Notes under the pieces: generated by a model
Told to the model about the DNA's origin: nothing
The model's database searches: none
What the model saw: only the letters and a program-made list of their open reading frames with translations
Position numbers and translations under genes: made by a program
Part shown: in pieces, positions 11,369 through 40,690 of the stretch
How the letters are laid out: every line of letters begins with the position of its first letter
Numbering within the stretch: the stretch's first letter is position 1
Origin: Trueperaceae bacterium
GTDB lineage: Bacteria; Deinococcota; Deinococci; Deinococcales; Trueperaceae
Assembly (NCBI GenBank): GCA_034520945.1
Contig: JAXHNB010000008.1
Coordinates: 143,125 to 207,124 of the forward strand
DNA: 64,000 nt
Direction: 5' to 3'

Positions 11369-11589
11369 AACGCCGCCTCGTCGTGCCGGCTATTGCGGCC
11401 GGGGCCCACGGCAACGACGCTCCGCGCATTGTCCCCGCTCAGCGTGCGAAGCGCCGTTCAACCTGCCCGAGTGGGCATCACAAGCATTGCAGAATGCCGA
11501 ACCACTGGCGTCACGCGTTCGGCAGCAGCCTAGGGGAAGCGAGACGAAAGCCGTGAGGGGCGAGGTCGCGGTAGGGCGAAAGACGTTGG

Positions 11590-16918: not shown

Positions 16919-17048
16919 GTCATCTGTCTGCGCATCGTCTTGGGCTAATTGTAGGCTATATATGGACATACGGAGACGGTAGCATACAAGATAGGGTATC
17001 TGCAATTATTAAGGCACTCGGAGCGAGTGGGGCCGCGCCCCGCTTACC

Positions 17049-19088: not shown

Positions 19089-19302
19089 AGGTGGCGCCGA
19101 ACCACCGGTTGCCACCGTCGTCAATGAATGCTATCGGAGCAAGTCTCAACGACTGCATGCAAGTTGCGCTCCTCGGCACCCGTGTAACAATGTGCGCGGA
19201 TCTGCCGACGAATCGCGCACATTCCGTCGGAAGCTGGCGGAATAGACTGCCCGGCACCTGGTCAGCCACCTCGAGCCGAACACTGCAGGAAGGGCGCCGT
19301 AC

Positions 19303-21680: not shown

Positions 21681-21829
21681 TTGTCGGAGGTTGCTAAGAA
21701 CGCGGTACGAGATGTGAAGGTGCTTGATTGAATTCGGTGCGGTGATTGAACGCCCTGATCGTGATCCGCATCAACAATAATCGAGCACAGTCATTCCTCA
21801 GTGACATGCCCACGGTACACTTGTGGTGC

Positions 21830-22462
21830 ATGCCGACTTCGCAGCACCCGCCGGTTCGCGACGATTACGCGGCCTACACCAATCAGGGCTTCCTCGGGCG
21901 AGAGACGTCTGAAACCGCACACTTGCTTGGAGATGGAGTGAGCGAGCAGGACGTGCGCCGTCGAGCAACCGACGAGAATCTCTTCCAGCTAACATCCGAG
22001 TCGAGCCGCAGGAGCACAGTCAATGCTGTCCTCGCCAGGCTCGACGGCGCGTCGGGACAGTTGTTAGACGTTCTTGCTTCGTCAGACCCTGATACGCGGC
22101 GCCAAGCGACGCTCTACGTCATCCTGCTGCAACACCGCCTACTTCGTGAATTCATCGCCGATGTCATCGTGCCCAAGGCGCGCCTTGCTGACGACGTCGT
22201 GACGGAAACCGACGTTGCAGTGTTCATGCAACGCGTGGCCTCACAGCAACCGGATGTACATGCATGGTCCACAAGCACCAAGCAGAAGGCAGTCTCGAAC
22301 ATGTTGCGCGTCTTGACAGACGCGGGGTTGTTGGAGCGCAAGGCGCGAGATCGCCATGTCATACGCACTTCCTGGGTTTCGCCGGAACTGCGCAACGAGC
22401 TTGATGCCGCCGGCCGCGCGAGCTACCTGACGCTGCTGCTTGACCAAGGAGGGGCGGCATGA
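21830..22462 (+). CDS. brxA: BREX BrxA (DUF1819)
   Basis: ENLFQ..S.S, LLREF, W+.ST..K, L.DAGLL; first gene of canonical BREX-1 order; start approximate. Confidence 0.85.
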   Translation: MPTSQHPPVRDDYAAYTNQGFLGRETSETAHLLGDGVSEQDVRRRATDENLFQLTSESSRRSTVNAVLARLDGASGQLLDVLASSDPDTRRQATLYVILLQHRLLREFIADVIVPKARLADDVVTETDVAVFMQRVASQQPDVHAWSTSTKQKAVSNMLRVLTDAGLLERKARDRHVIRTSWVSPELRNELDAAGRASYLTLLLDQGGAA

Positions 22463-23040
22463 GCGTGGCGGAGTTGGGTGCACGTCTGGAGCGGCTGCCC
22501 GACGTGCTTGCGCGCCACGACTTGTATGAGAGCAAGGGCATCGGGAACGAGGTCAACTTCCACGTCTTTGCCTATCCACCGGAGGCAGCGTCGGTGGTCG
22601 AGGGGTACGTTCCTAGACTTGTCCAGAGGCTTGCAGACAAGGGGTTGCAGGCGTTCGTCTTCGATGTCTTCCAGGAGATGATCGCGATCCTTCGTGAATC
22701 GGGTCACCTCGAACAAGCGTTGGATTTGGAGAGGGACAAGGGCACGCCAGCACTCGCGAAGGCCGTGCGCAAGATGCTTCATGCCCAGGCCTTGGCCGCG
22801 CGCCTGCAGGAACGACGCCGAGAGCAGCCGCACGATGTGATTCTCATCTCGGGCGTGGGCGGAGCCTACCCCCTTGTCCGGGCACATCAACTTCTGAACA
22901 ATCTCCACTCCGACGTCGAGGACGTACCCCTGGTGCTTCTCTACCCGGGTTCGTACGATGGCACGGCGTTTCGGCTCTTTGAGCGTTTGGATGACGAGAA
23001 TCACTACCGCGCATTCGTCCTTGTGGAACAGGTGGACTAG
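22459..23040 (+). CDS. brxB: BREX BrxB (DUF1788)
   Basis: GIGNEVNFHVFAYPP, GVG.AYPLVRAH.LLNNL, LYPG.YDG..F.LF, HYRAF. Confidence 0.92.
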   Translation: MSVAELGARLERLPDVLARHDLYESKGIGNEVNFHVFAYPPEAASVVEGYVPRLVQRLADKGLQAFVFDVFQEMIAILRESGHLEQALDLERDKGTPALAKAVRKMLHAQALAARLQERRREQPHDVILISGVGGAYPLVRAHQLLNNLHSDVEDVPLVLLYPGSYDGTAFRLFERLDDENHYRAFVLVEQVD

Positions 23041-26000: not shown

Positions 26001-26606
26001 CTGCTCCGCGAGCGTGAGCACGATCTCGCCACCCTAAGCGACGAAGATGCGGTCGCGGCCCGGGACACATTGCGGTCAATCGTGGATTCGCCCGACCCTG
26101 CCAGGGAGATCCCTAAGGCAGTTCCCCTGGTCGTGACCCTCGAGCAGGCCCTTGCATCCTTGGTGGATGCCCAGCGTTCAAAGGTCAAGACCGACCTTGA
26201 CGAGAAGGTGGCTTCGCTCCGAAGCCTCGCGACAGCAGCAGGAGTTCCTGACGATGCGGCAGCTGAAATGCTGCGGCCTCTCGAGTTGCACGCTGAACAA
26301 CTGAAGGGCGCGAAGACCGTCGAAGCTGTGCTTGCGCTAAGCGCGCAACTGTCGAACAAGGCGCAGGCCGCGGAGCAGGCGATCTACGCCTACCAACCGC
26401 CGATGCCTGACGATGACGAGGCTGATCCGGTGGGCGAGGCTGTGGAACCTGCACCGAAACCGCGCCCACTGGAGCCCTTCCATCCAGCCAAGATAGCGAC
26501 GAATGAAATCCTCACATCGACAGAAGACGTCGAGGCCTACGTGGATACGCTCCGCGAGGCGATGCTGAAGGTTCTCGAGGCGGGAAAGCGGATTCATGTT
26601 CGATAG
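23046..26606 (+). CDS. brxC: BREX BrxC P-loop ATPase
   Basis: KDIERPINGVIKV, WISGFFGSGKSH, DEIGQYI, VTSQE, FSKIQGRF, YPFVPYQF. Confidence 0.95.
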   Translation: MMNLYKKDIERPINGVIKVGQLDDAAIEHELSEYVITEEVNGYLDKFFDFYKDALQNPTDAIGVWISGFFGSGKSHLLKMFAYLLGNRKVPSGSALEIFLPKIDDPSLRGAIERAAGAPKDVILFNIDAKAMATDAGTPEPIVATLQRVVDEHRGYFAYGPSVANFERQLDQQGVYDGFKKAYEQHTGNRWIDDRQYWDFHQSEIVAALQQAMGIDQSAAQAAVDRADGSSFVSNEAFAKGLRTWLDEQGPNHQAIFMIDEIGQYIGTNGQLMLNLQTVAEELGIHCAGRAWLMVTSQEDIDAVTQQRVRGDDFSKIQGRFKTRISLSSANTDEVIKLRLLEKREEVITPLEALYEQHAQALKTQIRFSKDKTAHMPSYSGPASFVAAYPFVPYQFGLLQNVFTQIRLFGATGKNLAQGERSMLDAFQSAARTLQTTELGSLAPFHLFYSSVEGVLDGNIRLIIRNATKNPELEPFDAELLKTLFMIKYVKEMPGTVDNLVTLEIDHIERDRVALTDKVKAALARLEKQTLVQRTGDTYEFLTNEEQDVTREIKAFSVPAGSVESELQTLVWEELFDVKKVRYDAQHDYPYTRILDGQVVGQQNDDLRLHIVTPLGGEEYTSVFDDSAAMMQSGGNTVLVRLPDEGSREAFDELQLYVRTKHYLNQKLGKASKTSLLNILHTHQRQNRERQVRVRSAIDGLLREADVFAYGQRLEKLGSNTKDRLTSALKKLVEAIYTNRHYVTHPYPNSEAIHKVLQGGVSDVQPDAQGKVPNELAQGAMYTWLKARTDAHSLPTGKDLVTEFTGRPYGWSAYDVLGVLAELLVQRKAELLRYDAVVDPKEDKLVDSLISTQQRANLRVRVPHAIDPEAKATATRFLIHALDNPMPSADEKKLADDIRHRLEVIREDVGKDLAVARQGGYPYEEQLSKASEVLQDVLKPRDLASFFDKLHESADVLESVVAEAHRIHNFFDSAQQRKVFEDARRLLREREHDLATLSDEDAVAARDTLRSIVDSPDPAREIPKAVPLVVTLEQALASLVDAQRSKVKTDLDEKVASLRSLATAAGVPDDAAAEMLRPLELHAEQLKGAKTVEAVLALSAQLSNKAQAAEQAIYAYQPPMPDDDEADPVGEAVEPAPKPRPLEPFHPAKIATNEILTSTEDVEAYVDTLREAMLKVLEAGKRIHVR

Positions 26607-26690: not shown

Positions 26691-29600
26691 TTGATGGATC
26701 GGGGTGCGTTGAAGCGGTTTGCCTCGTGGGCGCGGCTTTGGTTGCGGGAGCAGATGCGCGTGAAGGCTCGCGCTTTGGGGCTTGGCGCGAAGGAGCTTGA
26801 GGAGCCCTCGTTCGTGTCGGGCGGGATGAGTGTCGCGGGGTTCACGTTCGGTGCGCACCAGGCTGGTCTCTACCGGCAGGTTCGGGCCGAGCTTGATGAG
26901 CGCATGCGGGCGGGCGCCACATACGCCGACGCGTTGGACGCGATATTGGACGAGATGGCGTTCACGTGGTTCAACCGCTTCACGGCCCTGCGCTACTTGG
27001 AAGTGAACGAGTACGGTGTGCGCGCCTTGAGTCACCCACAAGAAGGCGTGACTGAACCTGCGTTGCTACAAGGCGCAAACAGTCTTGCATCGGCTGGGCA
27101 ACTACCGGGCGTGACGATCGACATGCTGCAAGCGTGGCAGCGTCAGGGTCAGGACGCAACGTACCAAGGCGTGTTGAATGCGTACTGCCGGTCCCTCGGG
27201 TCGTGGCTGCCGTTCCTGTTCAACCCCCGGCAGGACATCGCGGAGTTGTTCCTCCCGGATCGGTTGTTGATGCCGGGCACGATCGTGCGGCGAATCGTGA
27301 CGGACGTTCCGGAGGAGGACTGGCGCCAAATTGAGGTGATCGGTTGGCTGTACCAGTTCTACATTGCTGACCGGAAGGACGAGGTGTTTGCGAAGAAGGG
27401 CACCTACACGCCTCGTGACATTCCTCCCGCCACGCAGTTGTTCACGCCCCACTGGATTGTTCGCTACATGGTGGAGAACAGTGTAGGTCGCTTGTGGCTC
27501 GAGTCGCACCCCAACTCCAGCCTGCGTGAGCACATGCCGTACTACCTCGACCCCAACGACGCGCCCAGCGACGGCCAGGGCGAGGGTGAGGAGGAGGCGC
27601 AGGGTCTAGCGTCCATGCCCGATCGACCCGCGGGCGCGCCTCTGCAACCGCAGGACATTACTGTGATGGATCCGGCGTGCGGGAGTGGCCACATTCTCGT
27701 GTACGCGTTCGACCTGCTTTTCCGCATTTACCAAGAGGCCGGCTACGCCACTCACGACATTCCGGGCTTGATTCTCGAGCACAATCTGCACGGCTTGGAC
27801 ATCGACTTGCGAGCAGCGCAACTCGCGAACTTCGCGGTCACCATGAAAGCTCGCGAACATACCAAGAGCGTTCAGACCGAGCCGCAACCCCTGCACGTTC
27901 ACGCGATCGAGCACACCCGCGGCATCACGCTTCCCGACACGAACCACCTCACCAAGGCCAAGTGGGAGCCCCTCGTCGACGCGTTTAGGCATGCCGACGA
28001 GCTGGGCAGCCTCATCGCGCCATCCGACAATGTGGACCTCGACGACCTACAAGGCGAACTGGACGCCTACACCCAAGCAGGCCACCTGGAAACCAGCAGC
28101 CTCGCCCCCGGACTCCAGCACCTCCTCCAGCAGGCCAGGCTCCTCGCAAGCAAGTACCATGCCGTCATTACGAACCCGCCCTATATGGGCAGCAAGGCCT
28201 TCAGCAGGACCCTCAAGGACTACACCAGAACCCACTACCCGATGTCCAAGGCCGACCTCTTCGCCGTGTTCATCGAGCGCAATCGCGAGCTGGCAAATGC
28301 CTATGGGCTGGTCAGTATGGTCACGATGCATGCTTGGATGTTCTTGAGTGGTTTTGAGGCGCTTCGGCGAGATCTTCTGTCAGAAAGCCCGCTGTTGTCC
28401 ATGGTGCATATGGGCAACATGGTTATGCGAATTGCTTTCGGCACGTGTGCCTTCATATTTCGTCCCGGCGGACCACCTTCGCAACTAGCGTCCTTCACCT
28501 GGATTCGCAGTCAGGACCTTGATCAGGAAGCGGATGGACCAATAAGCTTCCCCGTTCGCAACGTTCGAAATGCAGGGGCGATCGAGCTAGCTTACTGGCG
28601 CAGGAACTCAGATTTCAGCCTTGTGCCTGGTGCCGCGCTGGCGTACTGGCTTACACCTACCGGATTGGATGCGTTCTCGCTGGGAAGGCTAGATGACATC
28701 GCAGAAATGCGAGAGGGTGTGGGGACCCGGCAGGATGATCGGTTCATTCGCTTCATCTGGGAGCCGGATCTGAATTCTGTGGGTGTCGGCCCGAACTTCG
28801 ATGCAACGTGGCTATTGACGGACAAGGCGGGAGGCTATCGTAAGTGGCGTGCGGAACCACGTTACGTCATGAAGTGGCAAAACAATGGCCAGGAAATCAG
28901 GAACCTAAGGAATCCCAATGGATCATTGAAATCGCGCCCCCAGAACACGCAGTACTTCTATCGAGCCGCAGTTTCCTGGGGAAAGGTTACTTCTGGAGTC
29001 AACTCCTTCCGTCATCGCCCGCCTGGGTGGGGGTTCAATGATGCCGCTCCATCCGCATTCGGTCGAGATGGGCAGCTTCGCGCCATGCTCGCCTTCTTGA
29101 ACAGCGTTGTTGCACGCTACTTCATCGAAGCTCAAGGGCCGACAATCAACCTCACAGTTGGTGTTGTGGGAGCCTTACCGGCCGCTCGGGAAGTCGTGCT
29201 GGCGCACGAGCTTGCGGTGGACCTCCAACGCCAGTGCGAGGATCTTGTCGCCTCGGACGATGGGCTGAGCGAGGTATCGCATGATTTTCAGGAACACCCT
29301 ATTGTACGACAGGGCAAGATGCGCGTCGCGGATGCGTTCGAAGCGTGGCGAGTGGAGGCGGACAAGGCGTTCTGCGAGTTGAAGCGGCTTGAGGAGGAGA
29401 ACAACCGGTACTGGATTGACGCGTACGGCCTGCAAGACGAGTTGAGTCCCGAAGTGGACGAGGATGAGGTCACCATCCGTCGTGCGGATTGGGATGGGGA
29501 CGTGCGGAGCCTCATCAGTTACGCCGTTGGTTGCATGATGGGCCGCTACACCCTGAGTGGCCCCGGCCTCCAGTTCGCAGGTGGGGTATTCAATTTGAGC

Positions 29601-30284
29601 GACTTCGAGGGTTCTTACCTGCCCGACGCCAACGGCATATTGCCAATGACGGACGAGCCGTACTTCGAGGACGACATCGTCACCCGCTTCACTTCATGGC
29701 TTGAAGCGGCGTTCGGTCCGGAGCACGTGCAGGAGAACCTCCGCTGGATTGCGGACGCCTTGACGATGCGCGCCAGTGAAACGCCGCACGAGCGGATGCG
29801 TCGCTACTTCCTGACCGAGTTCATCAAGGACCACAACCGCCAGTACAGCAAGCGACCCATCTACTGGTTGTTCACCAGTGGGAAGCACGGCGGCTTCCAT
29901 GCGCTCGTGTACTTGCACCGCTACACGCCCGACACGCTCGCGCGGCTTAGGAGCGATTACGCCCTCCCGCTCGACGCGAAACTGCAGGCCGCCATTCGGG
30001 ATGCCGAGTACCAAGCGGAACACGCGACGAGTGCGAGTGCGAAGAATCGTGCCGAGAAGCTCGTCGCCAGGCTGCGCGCGCAGCATGAGGAACTCCAGGC
30101 GTACCAAGAAGCCCTGCAGCACCACGCCGACCAACGCATTTCCCTCGACCTGGATGACGGTGTCGCCTACAACTACACCCTCCTCGCTGACCTCCTCTAC
30201 CAAGGCAGCGACCTACCCCTGAAACAACTTCTGAAGGCCAGCCAATGGAAGCGAGACCTCTTGAAGCAAGAGTCCACAACATGA
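26691..30284 (+). CDS. pglX: BREX PglX adenine methyltransferase
   Basis: TWFNRF.ALRYLE, ATQLFTPHWIVRYMVENS, DPACGSGH, NPPY, KRPIYW, DLDDGV..NY. Confidence 0.95.
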   Translation: MMDRGALKRFASWARLWLREQMRVKARALGLGAKELEEPSFVSGGMSVAGFTFGAHQAGLYRQVRAELDERMRAGATYADALDAILDEMAFTWFNRFTALRYLEVNEYGVRALSHPQEGVTEPALLQGANSLASAGQLPGVTIDMLQAWQRQGQDATYQGVLNAYCRSLGSWLPFLFNPRQDIAELFLPDRLLMPGTIVRRIVTDVPEEDWRQIEVIGWLYQFYIADRKDEVFAKKGTYTPRDIPPATQLFTPHWIVRYMVENSVGRLWLESHPNSSLREHMPYYLDPNDAPSDGQGEGEEEAQGLASMPDRPAGAPLQPQDITVMDPACGSGHILVYAFDLLFRIYQEAGYATHDIPGLILEHNLHGLDIDLRAAQLANFAVTMKAREHTKSVQTEPQPLHVHAIEHTRGITLPDTNHLTKAKWEPLVDAFRHADELGSLIAPSDNVDLDDLQGELDAYTQAGHLETSSLAPGLQHLLQQARLLASKYHAVITNPPYMGSKAFSRTLKDYTRTHYPMSKADLFAVFIERNRELANAYGLVSMVTMHAWMFLSGFEALRRDLLSESPLLSMVHMGNMVMRIAFGTCAFIFRPGGPPSQLASFTWIRSQDLDQEADGPISFPVRNVRNAGAIELAYWRRNSDFSLVPGAALAYWLTPTGLDAFSLGRLDDIAEMREGVGTRQDDRFIRFIWEPDLNSVGVGPNFDATWLLTDKAGGYRKWRAEPRYVMKWQNNGQEIRNLRNPNGSLKSRPQNTQYFYRAAVSWGKVTSGVNSFRHRPPGWGFNDAAPSAFGRDGQLRAMLAFLNSVVARYFIEAQGPTINLTVGVVGALPAAREVVLAHELAVDLQRQCEDLVASDDGLSEVSHDFQEHPIVRQGKMRVADAFEAWRVEADKAFCELKRLEEENNRYWIDAYGLQDELSPEVDEDEVTIRRADWDGDVRSLISYAVGCMMGRYTLSGPGLQFAGGVFNLSDFEGSYLPDANGILPMTDEPYFEDDIVTRFTSWLEAAFGPEHVQENLRWIADALTMRASETPHERMRRYFLTEFIKDHNRQYSKRPIYWLFTSGKHGGFHALVYLHRYTPDTLARLRSDYALPLDAKLQAAIRDAEYQAEHATSASAKNRAEKLVARLRAQHEELQAYQEALQHHADQRISLDLDDGVAYNYTLLADLLYQGSDLPLKQLLKASQWKRDLLKQESTT

Positions 30285-30309: not shown

Positions 30310-32871
30310 GTGAGCTCCATGGACGTCGAACAGCTGCAGGCCAACCTGCACGCTGTCGTCGAGGACCACCGGCATCGATTCCCCAACCAGCGCGTCCTTG
30401 TGTTCTGGCGCGATCCTGACGGCGAGTTCAGCGAGGCCGTACACGAGTTGGCACTACCGGAGGGTATGGGCCTGCTCAAGGTGAACGACGCGCTGTTCGG
30501 AACGAAGGTCCTGCTGCTTGAAGAGGCACCCGAGGCCTCGTTCCTTGTCTACCTCCAACAACCACGACCTCGTGACGAGCAGAACTGGCTCCTCGATCTG
30601 GAAGTCCAGGCCGAAGCGTTCACGGCAGATCGTGCCGCGATGCTGGTTCGTCAGTTCGGCTTCACAGACCGAAGCCTGGTCGACTTCGTTCGGGAGGCGC
30701 TTCCCTTTTTCGGCAACAAGAAGCGCGTTCAGGCTCTGCACAACGTGGGGTTGGACGCGTCCGCCACGCGCGCCGATCTCGCCGTTGGAATGTGTTGCGT
30801 CCTTGCTGGCGTGGCGCCCGTGGACACGGCGAGGCTCCTACGCGCGGTCCTTGCTGAGAGCCTCGACGAAGACGAGAATACGACCTTCCAAGAGATCGTG
30901 AAGTACGTCGGAGCCGAACGTTTCTGGACCATCATCCGAGAAGCTGTCGGATATCGTGCTGATAGCCCTTCGCTTCGCGATCTCTGGATCTCGCTTGCAT
31001 TCACCCACCTGGCGGAATCGATGGGTGACGCGACGCCGAAGGCCGTGGCGAAGAAGGTGATTCGCCCCTCGGCCAAGGCGTTCGTGTTCGTGCAGAACTG
31101 GCTGCAGAACGCAAACGAAGGCGCCGCCTGGGACACGATCAGTCGCGAGATGGAGGCACAGCTCGACGTTGCGGACCATATCGCGGGGGTGGACACCGAC
31201 GCCATCCAGCACGCGGACACGTTCCCCATCTTTGACAGACTCGTCATCCAAGCAGCGGCCGACGCGCTCGTCACGGGCGGGCGCCCTGTCACGGACGTTC
31301 GCCAGTGGATCAACTCCCGCAGGGTTCGGCACTGGCACGGCCGCTTCGCCAATCACTACGACGCCCTGGAGGCGGGTGCCGATCTTGCAGACTTCGTGTC
31401 GCAGCCGCTTCCGCCACTGTCGTCGGTGGACGACGCATGGTCGTGGTACGCGAACACTGGGTATCGTGCTGATCGCGCCTATCGACGCTTCGTCGTGGCT
31501 TCGGATCAGGTGGGCGAGTCCCTCAACGTCCTTGGGGACCATGTCGATAAGCACTATCACGGAGCTTTCCTGGAACCCTTGAGCGCGAAGTGGGCTGCAG
31601 TGCTGGGCGCACACAGCGCATGGCCCGCGGGTGGCGTTTCGTCGCAGCGCTGGTTCTTCCACAATCGTGTCCAGCCTATGCTTGACCGGAACGACCGCGA
31701 CCGCGTATTCGTCCTCATCAGCGACGCGCTCCGCTACGAAGTGGCACACGACCTTGTCACGAGGATGCGCGAGAGCCTCCGTGGCGAGCCTACGCTGAAC
31801 ACGCAATCGGCGCTCTTGCCCAGCGTGACCAAGCTAGGCATGGCGGCTCTCCTGCCCGGCGCCAAGCTGTCCTGGGAGTCCGACAACTCGGTACGGATCG
31901 ACGGCATGTCCACCCAGGGTCGCGCGCAGCGCGCGGACGTTCTCGCGGCATCGGGCTACTCGTCGACCCTCCTCGACATTGACGCTTTGCTGGCGATGTC
32001 GCGAGAAGAGGCGAGGGCAGCCATACGCGACGCTCGGCTCGTCTACATCTACCAGAACGAGATCGATGCAGCCGGGGACAAGTACGCAAGCGAGAGGCAA
32101 ACCTTCGCGGCGTGCGAACGGGCGGTGACCACGCTGGACCGGGCCATTCGGACCATCGTCAATCAACTCAACGGCACCCACGTCCTGGTGACCAGCGACC
32201 ACGGCTTCCTGTACCAGCGCCGCGAGCTTGCCGAACACGAAAAGGTTCCCAAGCCGGTCGGGGACGTGCAGGAACTGAATCGTCGGTACGCGATCGGGGC
32301 GGACATCCAAGACCGCGAAGGCACCCTGCGCTTCAAAGCCCCCTACCTCGGCAAGGGCAATCTCGAGGTAGTCGTGCCACGTGGTGCGCAACGCTTCGCG
32401 ATCCAAGGGCCCGGTGCGCAGTACGTGCACGGTGGCGCAAGCTTGCAAGAGGTCTGCCTACCGATCATCACGTACCGGCACAAGCGGTCCGAGAAGGGCG
32501 GCGCTGCCCCCAGCAGCAAAGTGGGGGTTCAGGTCAACGCAACGGCGAAGCGGATTACCAACAACGCGTTCACCATCCGTCTGGTGCAGCAGGCCCCCGT
32601 GGGTGCCCGCGTGAAACCCCGCGCCATCAGTGTGCAGATCGTCGATGACGACGATGAACCCGTGACGAACCTTGTACCGCTGCTACTGGACAAGGACGCG
32701 CCCCAGGCGACCGAGCGCGAGTTCAGCGCCCGTCTGAAGATCGGTGTGACCGATACTTCCCCCGAGCGCCCGTACTATCTGGTCATAACGGATACCGACG
32801 ATGACGTCGAAATCCACCGCGAGCAGTGGGTTATCGACATCGCCATTTCCGACGACTTCGGAGACTTCTGA
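30310..32871 (+). CDS. pglZ: BREX PglZ alkaline-phosphatase-fold protein
   Basis: ISDALRYE, LPSVTKLGMAALLP, TSDHGF, YVHGGASLQE. Confidence 0.95.
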   Translation: MSSMDVEQLQANLHAVVEDHRHRFPNQRVLVFWRDPDGEFSEAVHELALPEGMGLLKVNDALFGTKVLLLEEAPEASFLVYLQQPRPRDEQNWLLDLEVQAEAFTADRAAMLVRQFGFTDRSLVDFVREALPFFGNKKRVQALHNVGLDASATRADLAVGMCCVLAGVAPVDTARLLRAVLAESLDEDENTTFQEIVKYVGAERFWTIIREAVGYRADSPSLRDLWISLAFTHLAESMGDATPKAVAKKVIRPSAKAFVFVQNWLQNANEGAAWDTISREMEAQLDVADHIAGVDTDAIQHADTFPIFDRLVIQAAADALVTGGRPVTDVRQWINSRRVRHWHGRFANHYDALEAGADLADFVSQPLPPLSSVDDAWSWYANTGYRADRAYRRFVVASDQVGESLNVLGDHVDKHYHGAFLEPLSAKWAAVLGAHSAWPAGGVSSQRWFFHNRVQPMLDRNDRDRVFVLISDALRYEVAHDLVTRMRESLRGEPTLNTQSALLPSVTKLGMAALLPGAKLSWESDNSVRIDGMSTQGRAQRADVLAASGYSSTLLDIDALLAMSREEARAAIRDARLVYIYQNEIDAAGDKYASERQTFAACERAVTTLDRAIRTIVNQLNGTHVLVTSDHGFLYQRRELAEHEKVPKPVGDVQELNRRYAIGADIQDREGTLRFKAPYLGKGNLEVVVPRGAQRFAIQGPGAQYVHGGASLQEVCLPIITYRHKRSEKGGAAPSSKVGVQVNATAKRITNNAFTIRLVQQAPVGARVKPRAISVQIVDDDDEPVTNLVPLLLDKDAPQATEREFSARLKIGVTDTSPERPYYLVITDTDDDVEIHREQWVIDIAISDDFGDF

Positions 32872-34907
32872 TGGACGCCACGCCGACGCCTGCAGACCTC
32901 GACACCAAGCTCAACGACCACTTCCCAGGGCGTGTGGTGCGCAAGGACCTCACGACACGCCTTAAGGAAGGCGCAAACGTGCCGGTCTATGTGCTCGAGT
33001 ACCTGCTGGGCACGTATTGCGCCACGGATGACCCCGAGGCGATCGAGGAAGGCGTCAAGCGCGTCAAGGCGATCCTGTCCGAGAACTACGTCCGACCTGA
33101 CGAGTCCGAGAAGGTGAAGAGCCGCATCAGGGAAAAGGGCCGATTCCGCATCATCGACCGCGTCACGGTCACACTGAATGACAAGCGCGATGAGTACGAA
33201 GCCTCACTGCTCAATCTGGGGATCCAGGGCGTCACGGTCGCATCTGAGTACGTCAAGGAGTTCGAGAAGCTCCTTGGCGGCGGAATCTGGTGCATTATTA
33301 CCCTCGAGTACGACGCCAGTCACAAGCCCAGCCCTTTCGTGCTCGAGACCCTGAAGCCTGTCCAAATGCCTCATCTGAACATGGACGAGGTGTTCCTGGG
33401 CCGCAAGTGGTTTACCAAGGACGAGTGGATCGACCTGCTCCTCCGATCCACCGGCCTAGAACCGACGACGCTGGACGAGGAGGCGAAGTGGCACCTCCTG
33501 GCCCGGATCGTGCCACTTGTCGAGAACAACTACAACTGCGTTGAGCTTGGGCCCCGAAGCACTGGCAAGAGCCACCTCTACAAGGAAATCAGTCCCAACA
33601 CGGTTCTCGTGTCCGGCGGGCAGACAACGGTCGCCAATCTCTTCTACAACATGACGCGCCGTCAGGTGGGCCTCGTGGGTATGTGGGACGTGGTTGCTTT
33701 CGACGAGGTCGCCGGAATCAACTTCAAGGACAACGATGGCGTTCAGATCATGAAGGACTACATGTCCAGCGGGTCCTTCTCGCGCGGCAAGGCGCAGATC
33801 ACAGCCCAGGCAAGCATGGTCTTCGTGGGGAACATCAACCAGAGCGTGGAGAGCCTAGTCAAGACGAGTCACCTCTTCGCACCGTTTCCCGAGGCGATGA
33901 TCGACACGGCATTCATTGATCGCTTCCACGCCTACATTCCCGGCTGGGAGATCCCGAAGCTCGGGCCGGAGAACTTCACGACTCGCTTTGGCTTCATCGT
34001 CGACTTCCTAGCTGAATGGCTGCGAGAAATGCGGAAGCACAGCTACGCTGACGCGATCGACAAGCATTTTCAGCTGGGCAACAACCTCAAGCAGCGCGAC
34101 GTTCAAGGTGTCCGGCGTACGGCGAGCGGTCTACTGAAGCTGCTATACCCCAACGGCGAGTATGGCAAGGACGAGGTTGAGGAGGTCCTCCGCTATGCGC
34201 TCCAGGCGCGCCGTCGCGTCAAGGAACAACTGAAGAAGCTAGGCGGTATGGAGTTCTACGACGTCCACTTCTCCTACATTGACCGCGAGACCCTCCAGGA
34301 GGAGTTCGTGTCGATCAAGGAGCAGAGCTCCGGCAAATTGATCGACAATGACCCCCTGCCCGCGGGCCATGGCTACGCCATCAGCCACGGCGATCACGAC
34401 ATGATCGGGCTCTACCGGATCGAGCTACAGGCCGTCGCTGGCAACGGCAAACTACAAAGGATGGGCGGTGCGGCAGAAAGCGCCGTCCGCGACCCCATCA
34501 ATGTTGCCTTCAATTACTTCAAGGCCAACAGTGGTCGGATCAGTGGCAGCATCAGCACGGGCAGCCACGACTACCTGCTCTCGCTAACCGACGTCCAAGG
34601 CTCGGGCAACCCGGACCAGATCGCCTTGCCGGTTTTGATCGCCTTGGCCGGCGCCTCCATGGGGAGAGCAACGCAGAGCCAGATGGCGGTCCTCGGCGAC
34701 ATGACGATCGGGGGAACCATCACACCGGTCGAAAATCTCGCCAGCGCATTGCAGGTTGCCTTCGACTGCGGGGCAAAGCGCGTTCTGCTGCCTACAGCCA
34801 ACGCAGGCGATATCCACACGATTCCTGGCGAGTTGTTCGCGAAGTTCCAGACGAGCTTCTACAGCGATCCGGTGGATGCGGTGTTTAAGGCGCTTGGTGT
34901 CGGCTAA
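32871..34907 (+). CDS. brxL: BREX BrxL (MCM-like AAA+ plus Lon-like domain)
   Basis: GRVVRKDLT, VYVLEYLLG.YC, ELGPRSTGKSH, AFDEVAG, DRFH.YIPGWEIPK, GAKRVLLP. Confidence 0.95.
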   Translation: MDATPTPADLDTKLNDHFPGRVVRKDLTTRLKEGANVPVYVLEYLLGTYCATDDPEAIEEGVKRVKAILSENYVRPDESEKVKSRIREKGRFRIIDRVTVTLNDKRDEYEASLLNLGIQGVTVASEYVKEFEKLLGGGIWCIITLEYDASHKPSPFVLETLKPVQMPHLNMDEVFLGRKWFTKDEWIDLLLRSTGLEPTTLDEEAKWHLLARIVPLVENNYNCVELGPRSTGKSHLYKEISPNTVLVSGGQTTVANLFYNMTRRQVGLVGMWDVVAFDEVAGINFKDNDGVQIMKDYMSSGSFSRGKAQITAQASMVFVGNINQSVESLVKTSHLFAPFPEAMIDTAFIDRFHAYIPGWEIPKLGPENFTTRFGFIVDFLAEWLREMRKHSYADAIDKHFQLGNNLKQRDVQGVRRTASGLLKLLYPNGEYGKDEVEEVLRYALQARRRVKEQLKKLGGMEFYDVHFSYIDRETLQEEFVSIKEQSSGKLIDNDPLPAGHGYAISHGDHDMIGLYRIELQAVAGNGKLQRMGGAAESAVRDPINVAFNYFKANSGRISGSISTGSHDYLLSLTDVQGSGNPDQIALPVLIALAGASMGRATQSQMAVLGDMTIGGTITPVENLASALQVAFDCGAKRVLLPTANAGDIHTIPGELFAKFQTSFYSDPVDAVFKALGVG

Positions 34908-34950
34908 TGGAAGGTATGGAAGGGGTCCCTAAGAGAGTCTTCTCATCGGT

Positions 34951-36495
34951 GTGGCGATGACAGTGCCGACGCCACGCCGGCACTGGCTCGAGACCCGCCG
35001 ATTGGCCAAGGCGTTGCCGGCTAAGGAAGTCTTCGAGTGGCTTGTAACACAGGGCTACTACCCTGAGCCGTACGTTCTCCCGCCCACGTTCGTGGTCAAG
35101 AAGGCGCCGGATTTTCATTCGGGTGGCTATTACCGCTATGACGAGTACCATAGACGCCTTATCGGAGGTGTCGAACAACCCCAGTCTATTCACTTCCCAA
35201 AAACGGATCACACGGATCGAACGTTTGGGTTCGTGCACCCTGAGCTCCATGCAGACATGGCACGGGTGGTGGCCAACTACTGGTCATCGATCGTAGCGCA
35301 TCTCTTTCCGAACTTTTCACTCGTGTATTCATACAGCTTTCCGATTCCTGTAGACGGCAAGCAGAAGGGTGCGCTTGGGCGGCTGCGGAGTGGCCGAATG
35401 ATCTACGAATGGATTGAGATGGCCGAGAAAGACCTTGCTGCTGAGGCGTATCGGTACGGGTGGTTGGTGAACGCCGATGTGGCCAACTTCTACTCCTCGA
35501 TCTATACGCATTCAATTGCATGGGCCGTGCACGGAAAGAAGAGGGCAAGAGCGAATAGGAAGAACCTGACGTTGTATGGCAATCTTCTTGACCAGCTCGT
35601 GCAGAAGGCGAATGACGATTGCACCAACGGCATCCCAACTGGGCCCGCGATCAGCGATCTAGTAGCCGAGATCGTGTTGGCTGGAGTTGACAGGTACCTT
35701 ACTAGCAGTATGCGGGCCGAAGGCCTTGGATCGACTCAAGTCCTCGCAGTGCGCTTCAAGGACGACTATAGAATTCTCTGCCGTACGCGTGAAGTGGCCA
35801 TGAAGGTCACCAAACTCCTTCAGGCTGCTCTGCGAGAGTTCCGGCTGCAGCTTAACGATGGCAAGACGCGGATTTCTGCACTGCCCGATGGCTTATTTCG
35901 TGTGTGGCGGACACGGTACGACCAGCTTAATCCGCACCCCAAGTCTTGGTACGACATCAAGCGCTTTGAGGCTGTCTTCAAGGGCGTGCTTGAGATTGAC
36001 CGGCACGTTCCAGGTACAGGCGTAGTAGATCGTTTTCTTGCGGATCTCGTTCGTCGAGACGGAACGCTCCGACTACGGCTAAATCGGCGAGACGTTCAGC
36101 GCGTCGTCAGCCTTCTGCTTTTGCTTGCGAAGCTTCGACCAAAGGCCTACCCTAAAGCACTTGCTATCGTGGAGGCCCTCATCAAATCGCCTGTCGGCAG
36201 GGCGCGACGCGATGCGGTTGTCAGCTACCTCAAGGGCGAGTTCGAAGCTTTGAGGCAGAACGAGGGCGAGGCGACGTACCGACTAGTATGGCTTGCTTAC
36301 TTCCTAGCCTCGAACAAGTACGTGTCAGAGGAGTACAAGCGTAGCAATGCGGTCCGTGATCCTGTGCTGCGCGTTATCTGGACAAGCCAGCCGCGGGCTA
36401 TTTGGGCTCATCGGGACTTCAAGATCGCTATTGGGGCAATCGCCGCAGCAAGGGAGACGTCGCTACTCTGGCATCTCGAGGTATTCAGTGCGTAA
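34951..36495 (+). CDS. Reverse transcriptase, Abi/UG (defence-associated) class
   Basis: DVANFYSSIYTHSIAWA, NGIPTGPAISDLVAE, RFKDDYRI, LQLNDGKT; GYYPE..LPP.F N-terminus; helical C-terminus; ATG 34957 alternative start. Confidence 0.9.
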   Translation: MAMTVPTPRRHWLETRRLAKALPAKEVFEWLVTQGYYPEPYVLPPTFVVKKAPDFHSGGYYRYDEYHRRLIGGVEQPQSIHFPKTDHTDRTFGFVHPELHADMARVVANYWSSIVAHLFPNFSLVYSYSFPIPVDGKQKGALGRLRSGRMIYEWIEMAEKDLAAEAYRYGWLVNADVANFYSSIYTHSIAWAVHGKKRARANRKNLTLYGNLLDQLVQKANDDCTNGIPTGPAISDLVAEIVLAGVDRYLTSSMRAEGLGSTQVLAVRFKDDYRILCRTREVAMKVTKLLQAALREFRLQLNDGKTRISALPDGLFRVWRTRYDQLNPHPKSWYDIKRFEAVFKGVLEIDRHVPGTGVVDRFLADLVRRDGTLRLRLNRRDVQRVVSLLLLLAKLRPKAYPKALAIVEALIKSPVGRARRDAVVSYLKGEFEALRQNEGEATYRLVWLAYFLASNKYVSEEYKRSNAVRDPVLRVIWTSQPRAIWAHRDFKIAIGAIAAARETSLLWHLEVFSA

Positions 36496-36529
36496 CCTGT
36501 CTAGGACCTTGATTGGATGTGCGCGGTCC

Positions 36530-36568
36530 GTGGATTGTGGTGCGGCGCATGTCGCTGGTGGATTGTGG
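36530..36568 (+). repeat. Direct repeat GTGGATTGTGG x2 (28 bp apart)
   Basis: Exact copies at 36530-36540 and 36558-36568; degenerate third copy near 36588. Confidence 0.7.
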
Positions 36569-36629
36569 ATCGAGCTTGATGCCGACGGTGGGATTGCTTG
36601 GCGGGATGAGGAGTCCCGACCTCCAGCGG

Positions 36630-36818
36630 CAAGGTAACGCCGTACTCCCGACGCAGGCGGTCCATGTCGGCGTCGAGGTCGCGGTCGTGCTTGCCCGCGG
36701 TGCCGGGCCCCTTGCGACCCGGGGCAAGCGTGAAACCGACGCGCCCCTTGAGGGGTAGCTCGCTGGAGGGGACGAAGTGGACCTCGATGGGGCTGGTGCG
36801 GGAGTCGAGCTGGGGCAT
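36630..36818 (-). pseudogene. Truncated CDKN3-like phosphatase paralogue
   Basis: SRTSPIEVHFVP...GRVGFTLAPGRKG...DRDLDADMDRLR.EYGV aligns with adjacent phosphatase; similarity ends ~36635 before the CX5R loop; AAGGAG RBS. Confidence 0.75.
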
Positions 36819-36882
36819 GTGACACTCCTTTCGGGAGGTGATGGGAACGCGCGCGTGCTGGCGGGTCCAGGACGCGGGTGCG

Positions 36883-37470
36883 TCAGGTTTCCGGGGTCGC
36901 GCCGGGGGCCGTCGTCAGCCAGTCGGCGTACGCCCCCACGTACGCCTCCTGCCCGCGCGTTTCGATCGCGCCGGGCCGGTGCTTGCGGACGCGGCGGACG
37001 GCGGTGGCGGCGTCGAGGCCGGCCCGCACCAGCAGGCAGGCGGCGACCAGGCCGCTGCGCCCCAGCCCGCCGCGACAGTGCACGGTGAGCGTGCGGCCGG
37101 CTTCGAGCTCGGCGTGCAGCTCGTCGATCAGCTGGCCGAACGCGTCGGCGGACCGGGCGTCGGGCACGGAGACGTCGTCGATGGGGAAGGGGCGGACGCG
37201 CATGCTGTGCGCTTCGGCGCGGGGGAACAGGTCGGGGATCTCCAGCAGGTCGTGCTCGTAGGGGCGCATCAGGGAGACCAGCACGTCGGTGCCGAAGCGC
37301 TGGCGCAGGTCCTGCAGGTCGGTGTCCAGGTCGCGGTCCCAGCGGACGCGTGACACGCTGCTGGTGGCCTTCTTGCCCGGCGCCAGGGTCAGGCCCAGGC
37401 GCCCGGGCAGGGGGTCCGTGGGCACGAAGTCGACCCGGATGGGGTGCGTGTGGGAGGTGGCGTGGATCAT
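36883..37470 (-). CDS. CDKN3/dual-specificity protein-tyrosine phosphatase-like protein
   Basis: P-loop HCRGGLGRSG, FPIDD..VP, RPGAIET..QE. Confidence 0.9.
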   Translation of the reverse strand: MIHATSHTHPIRVDFVPTDPLPGRLGLTLAPGKKATSSVSRVRWDRDLDTDLQDLRQRFGTDVLVSLMRPYEHDLLEIPDLFPRAEAHSMRVRPFPIDDVSVPDARSADAFGQLIDELHAELEAGRTLTVHCRGGLGRSGLVAACLLVRAGLDAATAVRRVRKHRPGAIETRGQEAYVGAYADWLTTAPGATPET

Positions 37471-37501
37471 CGCGGGTCCTCTCGTGCCAGGGAAGACGGG
37501 G

Positions 37502-37783
37502 TCACTCGTCGTCGGGCGGGGCGTACTCGTACTCGCCGGTGTGGACGTTGTATTGCAGGGTCCAGTCGTCCTTCGAGCGCTGGTAGGAGCCTCCGTGCAG
37601 GTCGTAGCGGGGCTTCGTGCCGTCTGGTTGGAGCTCGTAGCTGCCGGTGTGCATGTTGTAGGACGGGCTGGCGCCGGGCGGGGCGTACGCGTACTGGCCG
37701 GTGTGGACGTTGTATTGCAGGGTCCAGTGGTCCTCCGCCATCTCATAGCGGCCGGTGTGGAGGTTGTAGCGGGGCTTGGCCAT
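37502..37783 (-). CDS. 93-aa Tyr/His-rich protein of five ~18-aa Y[ND]xH[TG]GxY repeats
   Basis: GAAGGGAG RBS; five repeats; exact 32-nt DNA repeat at 37535-37566 and 37697-37728. Confidence 0.8.
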   Translation of the reverse strand: MAKPRYNLHTGRYEMAEDHWTLQYNVHTGQYAYAPPGASPSYNMHTGSYELQPDGTKPRYDLHGGSYQRSKDDWTLQYNVHTGEYEYAPPDDE

Positions 37784-37946: not shown

Positions 37947-38675
37947 ATGCCCACCCTCGACGCCCTCCTGCAACGGCGGCCCAGCTTCGACCTCGACGAA
38001 CTGGCCGACGTTGCCAACGATCACCTGCCTGCGCTGATCCCTGACGACCCGGTCGATGCACGGGTGAAACCGGAGGTGAACCCCCGCCTGATTCGCCACT
38101 ACGTATCCGAAGGCCTGCTGGACCCCGCCCTCAAGGACGGCCGTCACGCGGTCTACACCGTCGACCACCTCCTGCAACTGCTGGCCCTGCGGCGCCTGCT
38201 GGCCGACGGCGTGTCGTCCACCTACGTCGGCGACACCCTGCGCGCCAAGAACCGCGACGAACTGCGTGCCATCGCCGAAGGCCACCTCGACCCCTTTGCC
38301 GGCGCGTCCACCGAACCCGCCCCGCCCGGAGAGGACGCCCCGTCCCGGGCCCGGGCCGCCCTCGCCGCGATCCGCAGGCGCGCCTCGCTCGGCGGCGAAG
38401 CTACGCCGCGCACGCCGGCCGGCCGGGCCTTTCGAACCGCTGGGACCGCCGGTTCGTCGAACGTCGGCGCCGCGCAGCATCGCGCGGCGCCCGACCCCGC
38501 CTCGGCGCCCGACGCCGGCACCGTCGAAGGCTGGGAGCGCGTGCAGCTCCTCGACGGCGTCGAGCTGCACGTCCGCGACGACGTGCGCCTGCCCACGTCC
38601 CTCGACGCCCGCCAACGCCTGCTGGACCACGTCGTCCGCGAGATCGTCCGTTACGCCCAAGGGAGGGAACGATGA
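37947..38675 (+). CDS. MerR-type HTH regulator
   Basis: RLIRHYVSEGLLDP...GRHAVY..DHLLQL..LRRL; C-terminal WERVQLLDGVELHV. Confidence 0.85.
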   Translation: MPTLDALLQRRPSFDLDELADVANDHLPALIPDDPVDARVKPEVNPRLIRHYVSEGLLDPALKDGRHAVYTVDHLLQLLALRRLLADGVSSTYVGDTLRAKNRDELRAIAEGHLDPFAGASTEPAPPGEDAPSRARAALAAIRRRASLGGEATPRTPAGRAFRTAGTAGSSNVGAAQHRAAPDPASAPDAGTVEGWERVQLLDGVELHVRDDVRLPTSLDARQRLLDHVVREIVRYAQGRER

Positions 38676-40690
38676 GCCACACCGCAGACCCCCGCAGCGA
38701 CGCCACCGTCCACATCGACGCACGACTCCTGGCCGGGGCCGTCCCCGCCGATGGCGGCCGCGTGCCCGCCCTGCTCCGCGTCCGGGCCGACGCGACCCAG
38801 CACGATCGCCCCCGGACCCCCATCGACCTGGCGCTCGTCCTCGATCGTTCCGGTTCCATGAGGGGTGATTCGCTGGCGGCGGCGCGCCGCGCCGCCCACG
38901 ACGCCGTCGACCTGCTGGAGGACGGCGACCGCGTGGCGATCGTCGCGTACGAGTCCGAGGTCGAGGTGGTGCAGCCCCTCGCCGCCGTCGATCGCCGCGA
39001 GCAGCTCCATGCCGCCATCGACCGCATCGACACGCGCGGCACGACCGCCCTGCACGCCGGCTGGGTGGAGGGCGCCGAGCAGCTGGCCGACCACGTCGAT
39101 CCCGCCCGCGCCGCCCGCGTGGTGCTGTTGACCGACGGGCTCGCCAACGTCGGCGTCACCGATCCTGCCGCGATCATGCGGGACGTGGCCCAGCTGCAAG
39201 CGCACGGCATCGTCACCAGCACCGTCGGCTTGGGCCGCAGCTTCGCCGAGGACCTGCTGAGCGGCATTGCCGAGGCGGGCGGCGGCCGCTTCGCCTACGC
39301 CGAGACGCCCGCCGACCTCGAAGGGATCATGGCCGCCGAACTGATCGGCATCGACGCCACCCTCGCCCGCGGCGTGCGTGCCACCTTCGAGGGACGCCAC
39401 GCCGACGTCGCCGACGTGCTCAACGACTTCGTGCGGGACGGCGACGCCCTGGTGCTGCCCGACCTGGTCGACGGCCTGCCGTTGACCATGGTGGCGCAGC
39501 TCGACGTCGCCGCGGCCGAACCCGGGACCGAGACCGACCTCGGCCAGCTCCGGCTCACCTGGCACGACGCGGAGGGCGCCCGCCAAAGCGCCGACGTGCC
39601 CGTCCGCGTCCCCGTCGTCACCCGCGCCGACTACGATGCGCGCCAGGCCGACCCCGAGGTCGCCGCCGCGGTAGCGGCCCTCACCGCCGCCCGCCGCCGC
39701 CAACGCGCCATGGAGGCCCTCACCCAAGGCGACGAGGCCACCGCCCGCGCCGAGGTCGACGCGATCGAACGCGACCTGGCCGCCGCCCCGGACACGCCGG
39801 AGATCCAGCGTGAACGCGCGGCATTGCGACGCGTCCACGAAGCGCTCGAGGCGCGCGACACCGCCGTTGCACGCAAGCGCATGTCGCACGACCGCGAAGT
39901 GCGGCGCAAGGGCTTCGACCGCGAGGCGTTCGAAGCGACACCGCACTTCGCCACCAAGGTCGAGGGCCTGGCGTTCCGCCGCGCCCAGCGCGAAGGGCGC
40001 GAGGCGCCCAGCCGGGACACCTCAGCGCAGGGTGCGGAGGCGCATCGGTCCTCCACGCCGGCGGATTCGCCCAAGACGTCGCGCCGCGCGAAGCCGGCCT
40101 CGGCCACCGCCTGGCGACGGATCGAACTGCAGCGCTCCGACGGCACCACCGGCGTGCTTCGCCTCCGCACCGGCGACATCACCGAATGGGCCGGCGACGC
40201 CATCGTGAACCCCACCAACCCCAAGCTGCACGGCACCGGCGCCTCCGTCGACGGCGCGGTCCACCGCCGCGGCGGCATGGAACTCACCCGCGAGTGCCGC
40301 GCCATCGGCCACGTCGACCTCGGCCACGCCGTCGTCACCAAAGGCTGGAACCTGCCCGCCTCCTACGTGCTGCACACCGCCGTGCCCACCTACGACGGCA
40401 GCGACCGCGCCCTGAACACCCTTCGCGACTGCCACCGTGCGGCCCTGCACCTCGCCGGCCAGATGCGCTTCGAGCGGGTGGCGTTCCCCGCCATCGGTAC
40501 CGGTACCAACGGCTACCCCGTCGCCTCGGCCGCCCAGGTCGCGCTCAGCGAACTCCTGGACGCCCTGGCGCAGGACGGCGGCCCCAAGCGCATCGAAGTG
40601 GTGCTGTACGACGACGCGACGCGACAGGCCTACGGCCGTGCGCTGCGGGAACAGGCGGAGAAGCGGGGGTTGACGTCGCGGGCGGCGTAA
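38672..40690 (+). CDS. vWA domain - Macro (ADP-ribose-binding/hydrolase) fusion protein
   Basis: MIDAS DRSGSM, LLTDG; Macro GDIT..DAIVN..N, VDGAVHRRGG, AFPAIGTG.NGYP; ATGA overlap. Confidence 0.9.
   Translation: MSHTADPRSDATVHIDARLLAGAVPADGGRVPALLRVRADATQHDRPRTPIDLALVLDRSGSMRGDSLAAARRAAHDAVDLLEDGDRVAIVAYESEVEVVQPLAAVDRREQLHAAIDRIDTRGTTALHAGWVEGAEQLADHVDPARAARVVLLTDGLANVGVTDPAAIMRDVAQLQAHGIVTSTVGLGRSFAEDLLSGIAEAGGGRFAYAETPADLEGIMAAELIGIDATLARGVRATFEGRHADVADVLNDFVRDGDALVLPDLVDGLPLTMVAQLDVAAAEPGTETDLGQLRLTWHDAEGARQSADVPVRVPVVTRADYDARQADPEVAAAVAALTAARRRQRAMEALTQGDEATARAEVDAIERDLAAAPDTPEIQRERAALRRVHEALEARDTAVARKRMSHDREVRRKGFDREAFEATPHFATKVEGLAFRRAQREGREAPSRDTSAQGAEAHRSSTPADSPKTSRRAKPASATAWRRIELQRSDGTTGVLRLRTGDITEWAGDAIVNPTNPKLHGTGASVDGAVHRRGGMELTRECRAIGHVDLGHAVVTKGWNLPASYVLHTAVPTYDGSDRALNTLRDCHRAALHLAGQMRFERVAFPAIGTGTNGYPVASAAQVALSELLDALAQDGGPKRIEVVLYDDATRQAYGRALREQAEKRGLTSRAA

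Follow-up and report, generated by a model that had tools for sequence, protein, structure and literature searches.

A UG14 reverse transcriptase behind a type 1 BREX operon in a Trueperaceae bacterium is probably an autonomous defence gene

A reverse transcriptase behind a BREX operon

The stretch of DNA analysed here, to which we refer as the window, comprises 64,000 nt from a Trueperaceae bacterium (GCA_034520945.1, contig JAXHNB010000008.1, positions 143,125-207,124 of the forward strand) and carries a gene for a reverse transcriptase (RT) immediately downstream of a complete type 1 BREX (bacteriophage exclusion) operon. This RT is a member of UG14, a class 1 group of the UG/Abi (abortive infection) RTs, and comparison from both the RT side and the BREX side indicates that it is an add-on to the operon. 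The reading that we favour, at a probability of roughly two in three, is that the gene encodes an autonomous, protein-primed RT resembling the defence-associated reverse transcriptase (DRT) DRT4, probably transcribed by read-through from upstream BREX transcription, and forms an abortive layer stacked behind BREX.

Family, motifs and fold of the reverse transcriptase

The open reading frame (ORF) that follows brxL on the + strand, at 34951-36495, matches the PADLOC profile PDLC03751 (RT_UG14) along its full length (E 9.4e-173, 573 bits, profile positions 4-491 of 493), with Drt6 the next profile at 226 bits, and it also matches Pfam RVT_1 (E 2e-9). This places the protein in UG14, and an initial annotation, made from the DNA alone, was therefore right to call it an RT of the Abi/UG class, characterised relatives of which make DNA without a template. 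Its likely start is ATG 34957 (34957-36495, 512 aa, 49 bp from brxL), where 30 aligned homologues begin; GTG 34951 would give 514 aa and a gap of 43 bp, and the start in the database gene call, TTG 35002 (497 aa, gap 94 bp), would remove conserved N-terminal residues. According to the passages on UG14 in Mestre et al. 2022 (PMC9226505), the group is strongly enriched in defence islands and was predicted to be a new defence gene, not being among the groups tested there. Our literature search found no experimental work on UG14.

The motifs expected of a working enzyme are in place. In a family alignment of 30 sequences (alignment A1), the catalytic residues Asp176 of motif A and Asp271-Asp272 of motif C, the latter within RFKDDY (FKDD; codons checked at 35761-35766, + strand), are invariant in 30/30, and so is Tyr152, which lies in the motif LRSGRMIYE (codon checked at 35404-35406, + strand). 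Tyr152 pairs with Tyr125 of DRT4 in a hidden Markov model alignment of the family profile to PDB chains, the posterior there being ~0.6-0.7; as Tyr125 is given as the priming residue of DRT4 in the account of that system by Wang et al. 2025 (PMC12783706), Tyr152 is probably the residue that serves in protein priming. Every residue that is invariant across the alignment is present in the window RT. At highly conserved columns it deviates in 12 of 162, the most of the 30 sequences, the next most divergent having 9, which suggests a protein that is divergent but not decayed.

The fold points in the same direction. An AlphaFold2 (AF2) model of the RT has a predicted local distance difference test score (pLDDT) of 86.2 and a predicted template modelling score (pTM) of 0.87, and its top Foldseek matches extend over essentially the whole chain: DRT4 (9vdo), UG15 (9l9s), Abi-P2 (7r08), DRT6 (9wy8) and AbiK, with alignments to DRT4, Abi-P2 and DRT6 of 474-502 columns that take in the whole length. 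Compared with the DRT4 chains, the family profile gives E 3e-38. Residues ~336-508 (35956-36474, + strand), which are covered by these full-length alignments, form an all-helical C-terminal domain in the model; a C-terminal alpha-repeat (alphaRep) domain is typical of class 1 UG/Abi RTs in the description of that class in PMC9226505.

The BREX operon and its junction with the reverse transcriptase gene

The six core genes of type 1 BREX, brxA, brxB, brxC, pglX, pglZ and brxL, are present in this order on the + strand and at full length by both Pfam and PADLOC. They comprise brxA at 21746-22462 (Pfam BrxA, E 1.6e-38; PADLOC BrxA, E 1.8e-43), brxB at 22459-23040 (Pfam BrxB, E 6.3e-37; PADLOC BrxB, E 6e-56), brxC at 23046-26606 (PADLOC BrxC, E 0, profile positions 5-1189 of 1190), the methyltransferase gene pglX at 26691-30284 (PADLOC PglX, E 0, positions 1-1168 of 1174; Pfam Eco57I and N6_Mtase), pglZ at 30310-32871 (PADLOC PglZ, E 3.7e-231, positions 1-854 of 855) and the Lon-like brxL at 32826-34907 (PADLOC BrxL, E 0, positions 6-679 of 680; Pfam BrxL_N, BrxL_ATPase and Lon_C). 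Because relatives of BrxL align from residues 20-24, the real start of brxL probably lies slightly downstream of 32826.

Between the brxL stop and the RT start there is a spacer of only 43-49 bp, depending on the start codon (34908-34956 on the + strand when counted to ATG 34957), which on the + strand contains neither a terminator-like nor a promoter-like site. The spacer folds no better than shuffled sequence (z -1.0), the flanks of the RT gene are likewise not above shuffles, and Rfam gives no match within 34500-37200; with so short a spacer, we find no non-coding RNA (ncRNA) associated with the RT. The initial description of this locus, a complete operon followed 43 bp later on the same strand by an RT, with no evident terminator and no room for an upstream ncRNA, thus holds in each of its parts, and the RT is probably co-transcribed with BREX by read-through.

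The junction itself is crossed without differences by an assembled contig (33575-35866) from one public run, so the join is not peculiar to the deposited assembly; this run probably derives from the source sample, however, and hence does not offer independent support. In a run that we label X1, two contigs abut exactly at 34928, inside the spacer, and a contig from run X2 crosses this position; the abutting ends could represent a graph branch caused by strain variation, or simply low coverage.

Related BREX loci lack the reverse transcriptase

We then considered whether BREX loci related to that of the window carry the RT. Among the 364 genomes sampled from the phylum of the window, 46 have a BrxL-like match, and in none of the 22 other pglZ-brxL loci returned, 20 of which extend 500 bp or more past brxL, is a UG14 RT found downstream of brxL. 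The BrxL proteins of these loci include some that are 66-79% identical to that of the window. At the nearest of them (genome G260, BrxL 79% identical), DNA homology with the window runs through brxL and ends at 34911, four bases past the stop codon, and the operon there ends with brxL. A strong UG14 match occurs in 1 of the 364 genomes, which is that of the window. Base composition also sets the gene apart, as GC content at third codon positions (GC3) is 0.64 in the RT vs 0.70-0.79 across the six BREX genes.

The G260 locus contains ~2.6 kb of DNA inserted between pglX and pglZ (L194:10740-13378), and a BREX locus in an Aminicenantes metagenome-assembled genome (MAG), L005, carries AbiEi-AbiEii at the same position. 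As both have extra DNA there, the pglX-pglZ junction seems to be another place at which additional genes are inserted.

UG14 reverse transcriptases seldom adjoin BREX

To view the association from the RT side, we collected the best 80 of 136 relatives from a scan of one genome per species and the best 80 of 286 from a scan of metagenomes, 160 loci in total. Twelve RT sequences were dropped (8 with internal stops and 4 cut short; 3 of the 12 loci sat in helicase or methyltransferase contexts), and the rest were clustered at 90% identity to yield 113 clusters including the window. When searched with the BREX proteins of the window by tblastn, brxL was found near the RT in 2 of the 160 loci, L005 and L093. 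Expressed by cluster, 76 of the 112 clusters other than the window have at least 2.2 kb of upstream sequence, and two of these are BREX-adjacent, one directly and one with a gene between. In L005 the order is pglX-AbiEi-AbiEii-pglZ-brxL, and the RT follows after 64 bp; in L093, pglZ-brxL is followed by a 590-aa AIPR/AbiU-like gene, the RT and a 126-aa ORF, with gaps of 33 bp both between brxL and the AIPR gene and between the latter and the RT. As in the window, GC3 differs at L093 (RT 0.75 vs brxL 0.96). The L005 RT (9992-11380), the only other one directly behind brxL, diverges from its sisters over the last 40-50 residues in a frameshift-like manner, which is either an error of the MAG or the mark of a decaying gene.

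Phylogenies were estimated with FastTree for all 113 rows and under a mixture model in IQ-TREE for 39 rows. The window RT groups with those of L010, L007 and L093 (Shimodaira-Hasegawa-like support 97-98); all four rows have unusual composition and the window branch is long. The L005 RT is placed elsewhere, outside this clade, and a single clade of the three BREX-adjacent RTs was rejected (approximately unbiased test, p 4e-9), which implies that adjacency to BREX arose more than once. Upstream partners differ even within the window clade: BREX in the window, BREX plus AIPR in L093, PDC-M30A with a NERD-UvrD helicase in L007, and IetA-IetS...HNH in L010. Carriage of the RT by phages was also considered and rejected, as a viral contig collection contained only 1 relative.

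Taken together, the RT-side, BREX-side and GC3 comparisons lead us to regard the RT as an add-on to the window BREX locus rather than part of a conserved seven-gene system, to judge from gene order and composition. This makes it barely credible that BREX in the lineage of the window has the RT as an integral seventh subunit whose DNA product, or the protein itself, is needed for methylation or exclusion. Position and spacing are all that speak for such a role; the six canonical genes are already complete, the closest BREX lineages do without the RT, its composition is unlike that of the BREX genes, and its family occurs overwhelmingly outside BREX.

The same comparisons bear on the proposal, put forward in the initial annotation, that the RT is a BREX-coupled abortive guard, which by the logic of PrrC in EcoprrI would be silenced by a working BREX, or would sense its inhibition (by Ocr-type mimics or depletion of S-adenosylmethionine), and then cause abortive infection. 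Such coupling would fit the operon-like place behind brxL with no intervening terminator-like site, the recurrence of brxL-RT in L005 and of brxL-AIPR-RT in L093, the UG14 RTs that follow closely on, or are embedded in, type I, type III-like and type IIG loci, and the backup effectors that BREX loci recurrently carry, GmrSD-Schlafen-type genes among them, in the account of a 2026 survey of BREX (PMC12839542). However, the RT is missing from all 22 related BREX loci, adjacency is seen in just 2 of the 76 other clusters with enough upstream sequence, the sole other direct case has an RT with a frameshift-like end, and many homologues are distant from any restriction system; moreover, the main text of the BREX survey names no RT, and DRT4 and DRT6, as described in the literature on these systems, sense phage single-stranded DNA-binding (SSB)-like proteins and deoxynucleoside triphosphate (dNTP) levels unaided. 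We consider a dedicated guard unlikely, and the comparative data instead favour what the initial annotation had offered as its fallback, a gene independent of BREX that happens to be its passenger.

Genomic contexts of UG14 genes

Independence from BREX would also fit the settings in which UG14 genes are found more widely. Upstream sequence of 500 bp or more is available for 97 clusters. Of these, 22 have a same-strand ORF ending no more than 60 bp upstream and 22 have one at 61-150 bp, and in the remaining 53 the gap exceeds 150 bp, the neighbour is divergent or there is no ORF upstream. Many loci lie amid housekeeping genes, such as those for gyrase, tRNA synthetases, an ABC transporter and methylmalonyl-CoA mutase, which argues that the gene works on its own. 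As the first part of what would speak against coupling, the initial annotation had named homologues in random defence contexts; we find them both as lone genes in housekeeping surroundings and downstream of many different, unrelated systems.

Where partners are tightly linked they are varied, with a leaning to restriction-type genes. A type III-like methyltransferase, the RT and a NERD/UvrD helicase occur together in 10 clusters, mostly of one clade; type I genes (HsdR then RT, HsdM then RT, or RT then HsdM) in 5; a cyanobacterial UvrD helicase with an inserted DEDDh exonuclease, matching PADLOC 'RTasHel', in 4; and a PrimPol-DEDDh protein in 1. An extra scan of clusters first labelled as having no partner took in 79 of 199 candidate ORFs of at least 250 aa, namely those on the same strand up to ~3.2 kb upstream or 2.2 kb downstream, and this partial scan added eight loci with methyltransferase or restriction genes within ~3 kb. 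Upstream of the RT these are a 1310-aa type IIG/DrmMI-like protein at 81 bp (L099), hsdM-hsdS-PDC-S14 (L037), an N6_N4 methyltransferase (L115), hsdS (L143) and hsdR at ~1.8 kb (L044); downstream they are Eco57I-type methylases (L024, L028) and a D12 methylase with an AlwI-type endonuclease (L074).

Two of these arrangements recur in a form that merits separate description. In the first, an N6_N4 type III-like methyltransferase (~950 aa, PADLOC MTase_III, E 0) is followed by the UG14 RT and a NERD/UvrD helicase of ~700 aa (L035:7046-13638, L036, L038, L039, L054, L132, L147, L151, L153, L155 and L156); at L035, L038, L039 and L147, the four loci for which gaps were measured, these span -32 to 15 bp, and the distance from RT to helicase is larger, ~1.4-2.6 kb, in L036, L054, L132 and L153. 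In the second, found in Cyanobacteria (L002:7488-11509, L003, L013, L014, L095 and L106), the RT lies 32-101 bp behind the UvrD helicase with its inserted RNase_T/DEDDh exonuclease, and this helicase matches 'RTasHel' at E 0.

The reverse transcriptase closes a defence island

The window is GC-rich overall and contains a stretch of lower GC at ~4.3-36.9 kb that is dense in defence genes; the RT is the terminal gene of this island of ~32 kb. Its right border is marked, ~110-400 bp past the RT stop, by a remnant of a DSP-type phosphatase gene at 36501-36818 on the - strand, a truncated paralogue of the intact neighbour at 36883-37746 (- strand; BLASTP 43% identity over 68 aa, E 3e-14), which retains the ~65 first residues of the phosphatase domain and whose similarity to that neighbour fades near residue 70. 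Across the border, GC rises from 0.575 (34001-36000) through 0.661 to 0.742 (38001-40000), and contig depth rises from ~10-13 over BREX and the RT to ~21-30 beyond ~36.9 kb, where many positions are variant; loose contig ends occur at 36918 and 37116. That depth is equal over BREX and the RT implies that both are carried on one strain-specific segment. We found no tRNA in the window and no convincing direct repeats flanking the island that might represent attachment sites.

This position raises the question of whether the RT is an inert or decaying passenger, recently acquired at the edge of the island and now without function. Its terminal branch is the longest in the tree (0.9-1.1), its deviations at conserved columns, the most in the alignment, include K178A beside motif A, its GC3 falls below that of its neighbours, and it sits at the very border; decay does occur in the family, with an internal stop in the RT at 8 of 160 loci and the frameshift-like C-terminus of L005 as a ninth case. 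Nevertheless, the frame is open over 512-514 aa with every invariant family residue present, the AF2 model is confident along the full length, and the depth of the gene equals that of BREX; we therefore view loss of function as very unlikely.

Several further features of the island and its surroundings were noted. An 11-mer, GTGGATTGTGG, is present twice, 28 bp apart, at 36530-36568 on the + strand, just past the RT stop and inside the junction region. Immediately upstream of BREX, a gene at 19303-21420 (+ strand) encodes a 705-aa protein with GmrSD_N (Pfam, E 2.8e-28) and Schlafen/AlbA_2 (SLFN_AlbA_2, E 1.6e-16) domains and matches PADLOC HEC-05 (E 2.3e-48); it ends 325 bp upstream of brxA and is a candidate for a BrxU-like type IV restriction or backup nuclease. 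A McrBC-type system at 6624-10741 (+ strand) consists of a 954-aa McrB-like AAA_5 ATPase with an EVE domain followed by McrC. On the - strand at 13874-17005 there is a pair resembling a cyclic-oligonucleotide-based anti-phage signalling system (CBASS), formed by a DncV-like nucleotidyltransferase (CD-NTase, 14530-15801) and a patatin phospholipase effector (15965-17005; PADLOC Effector, E 5e-105), and beside it lies an unannotated ORF of 222 aa (13874-14542). The segment 17049-19320, in which a 337-aa ORF with ParE_toxin and UvrD-helicase N-terminal matches is followed by short overlapping + strand ORFs, is probably a frameshifted or degraded helicase gene (a ParE-UvrD remnant); a long ORF on the opposite strand there, 17265-19124, has no family match. 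Other island genes identified by Pfam and PADLOC encode an AbiEi-like regulator, an antitoxin and a MazG-like protein. In the higher-GC flank outside the island, a MerR-family regulator gene is followed by one for a 672-aa fusion of VWA and Macro domains (37947-40690, + strand).

Proposed mode of action and its weight

The explanation that we consider most likely is that the UG14 RT is a self-contained, single-protein system like DRT4, DRT6, AbiK and Abi-P2. It would use a tyrosine of its own, probably Tyr152, as primer, and its product would be a covalently attached, untemplated single-stranded DNA made with no ncRNA; on a phage cue, the RT would be triggered and the infection halted by abortive infection. 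The model for this is DRT4, a single-gene system that makes random single-stranded DNA by protein priming (PMC12783706). In the literature on DRT4 the enzyme is a dimer-of-trimers hexamer, its product is covalently attached and synthesised without a template, and its triggers are phage SSB-like proteins and changes in dNTPs; the phage protein that activates DRT4 also activates DRT6 (PMC12783706). Untemplated synthesis is described for class 1 DRTs as a whole, which would explain why no upstream ncRNA is needed. Transcribed by read-through from the BREX operon, the RT would provide a mechanistically independent second layer and be neither a BREX subunit nor a dedicated guard.

This interpretation must be weighed against several observations. 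The mechanism is extrapolated from relatives of ~20% sequence identity. Tight same-strand spacing of 43-49 bp with no terminator-like site is the pattern expected of a true operon member, and adjacency to BREX recurs in three BREX sublineages (PglZ profiles PDLC02564, 02566 and 02559) and at least two RT lineages, which is not expected from random genomic position. In addition, ~26 of the 113 clusters, a count from partial annotation with no matched control family, lie in or near restriction loci that are based on a methyltransferase, the gap often being no more than 60 bp, and this linkage could reflect a functional link instead of clustering within islands. It may be conjectured that UG14 RTs form a second-layer module of a dedicated kind, which restriction systems based on methylation (BREX, type I, type III-like and type IIG) have captured time and again, and which is co-transcribed with its partner and fires when the latter is inhibited or overwhelmed; the window RT would then be a working, BREX-dependent backup arm; we regard this as quite unlikely.

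Should the RT act on its own, which is what the data suggest, the locus represents ordinary stacking within a defence island. The gene is a fairly divergent member of a known RT group, its nearest relatives being only ~50% identical, and the brxL-RT arrangement is not described in the literature that we found; Mestre et al. 2022 (PMC9226505) make no mention of BREX. UG14 also recurs in a tight position behind restriction-type operons, yet it is absent from the groups to which the same survey assigns partner genes. The window offers a natural example of a DRT4-like RT stacked in a BREX transcription unit, co-transcription being probable, and together with the methyltransferase-RT-helicase loci it provides experimental entry points both for UG14 defence and for distinguishing RT-plus-restriction synergy from co-location.

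Comparison with known systems

PrrC, an anticodon nuclease whose gene lies inside the EcoprrI type I restriction locus, is physically bound by its restriction partner, for which it is specific. As an abortive-infection gene within a restriction operon it is the model behind the guard idea, and the window RT resembles it in being appended to such an operon on the same strand; in contrast to PrrC, the RT belongs to a family that is mostly found without any restriction partner. The backup effectors of BREX, such as BrxU-type GmrSD and Schlafen proteins, resemble the window RT in that each adds a defence gene in tight linkage with the BREX core, but those catalogued in the main text of PMC12839542 are nucleases.

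UG35, described in the section of PMC9226505 on that group as a methyltransferase-RT fusion with a UvrD-like helicase, combines the same three activities as the UG14 clade of methyltransferase, RT and NERD/UvrD helicase, so that these UG14 loci look like an unfused UG35 system. The methyltransferase of the UG14 clade is a separate gene, however, and the window RT lies outside the clade, its sole methyltransferase neighbour being PglX. AbiK and Abi-P2 have a fold class in common with the window RT (7r08 and 7r06, template modelling scores ~0.5-0.6) as well as the principle of untemplated synthesis from a protein primer. In AbiK the primer is an N-terminal tyrosine, Tyr44 (the title of PDB entry 7z0z names a Y44F variant), whereas in UG14, which has an invariant Tyr41, Tyr152 is the better-supported candidate.

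DRT4 (UG15) and DRT6 (UG12) are the best matches in sequence and fold among solved structures, and they share with the window RT a single polypeptide and the position of the priming tyrosine (Tyr152 vs Tyr125 of DRT4). Identity in structural alignments is only ~20% and UG14 is a separate group; a hexamer, single-stranded DNA synthesis, a comparable trigger and any RNase output are hypothetical for UG14. Within UG14, the window RT is set apart by a maximum identity of ~50% to the other members found and by its position directly behind brxL, and it is at one with them in its full-length profile match, the union of an RT with a C-terminal helical repeat domain, the lack of need for an ncRNA and its location in a defence island.

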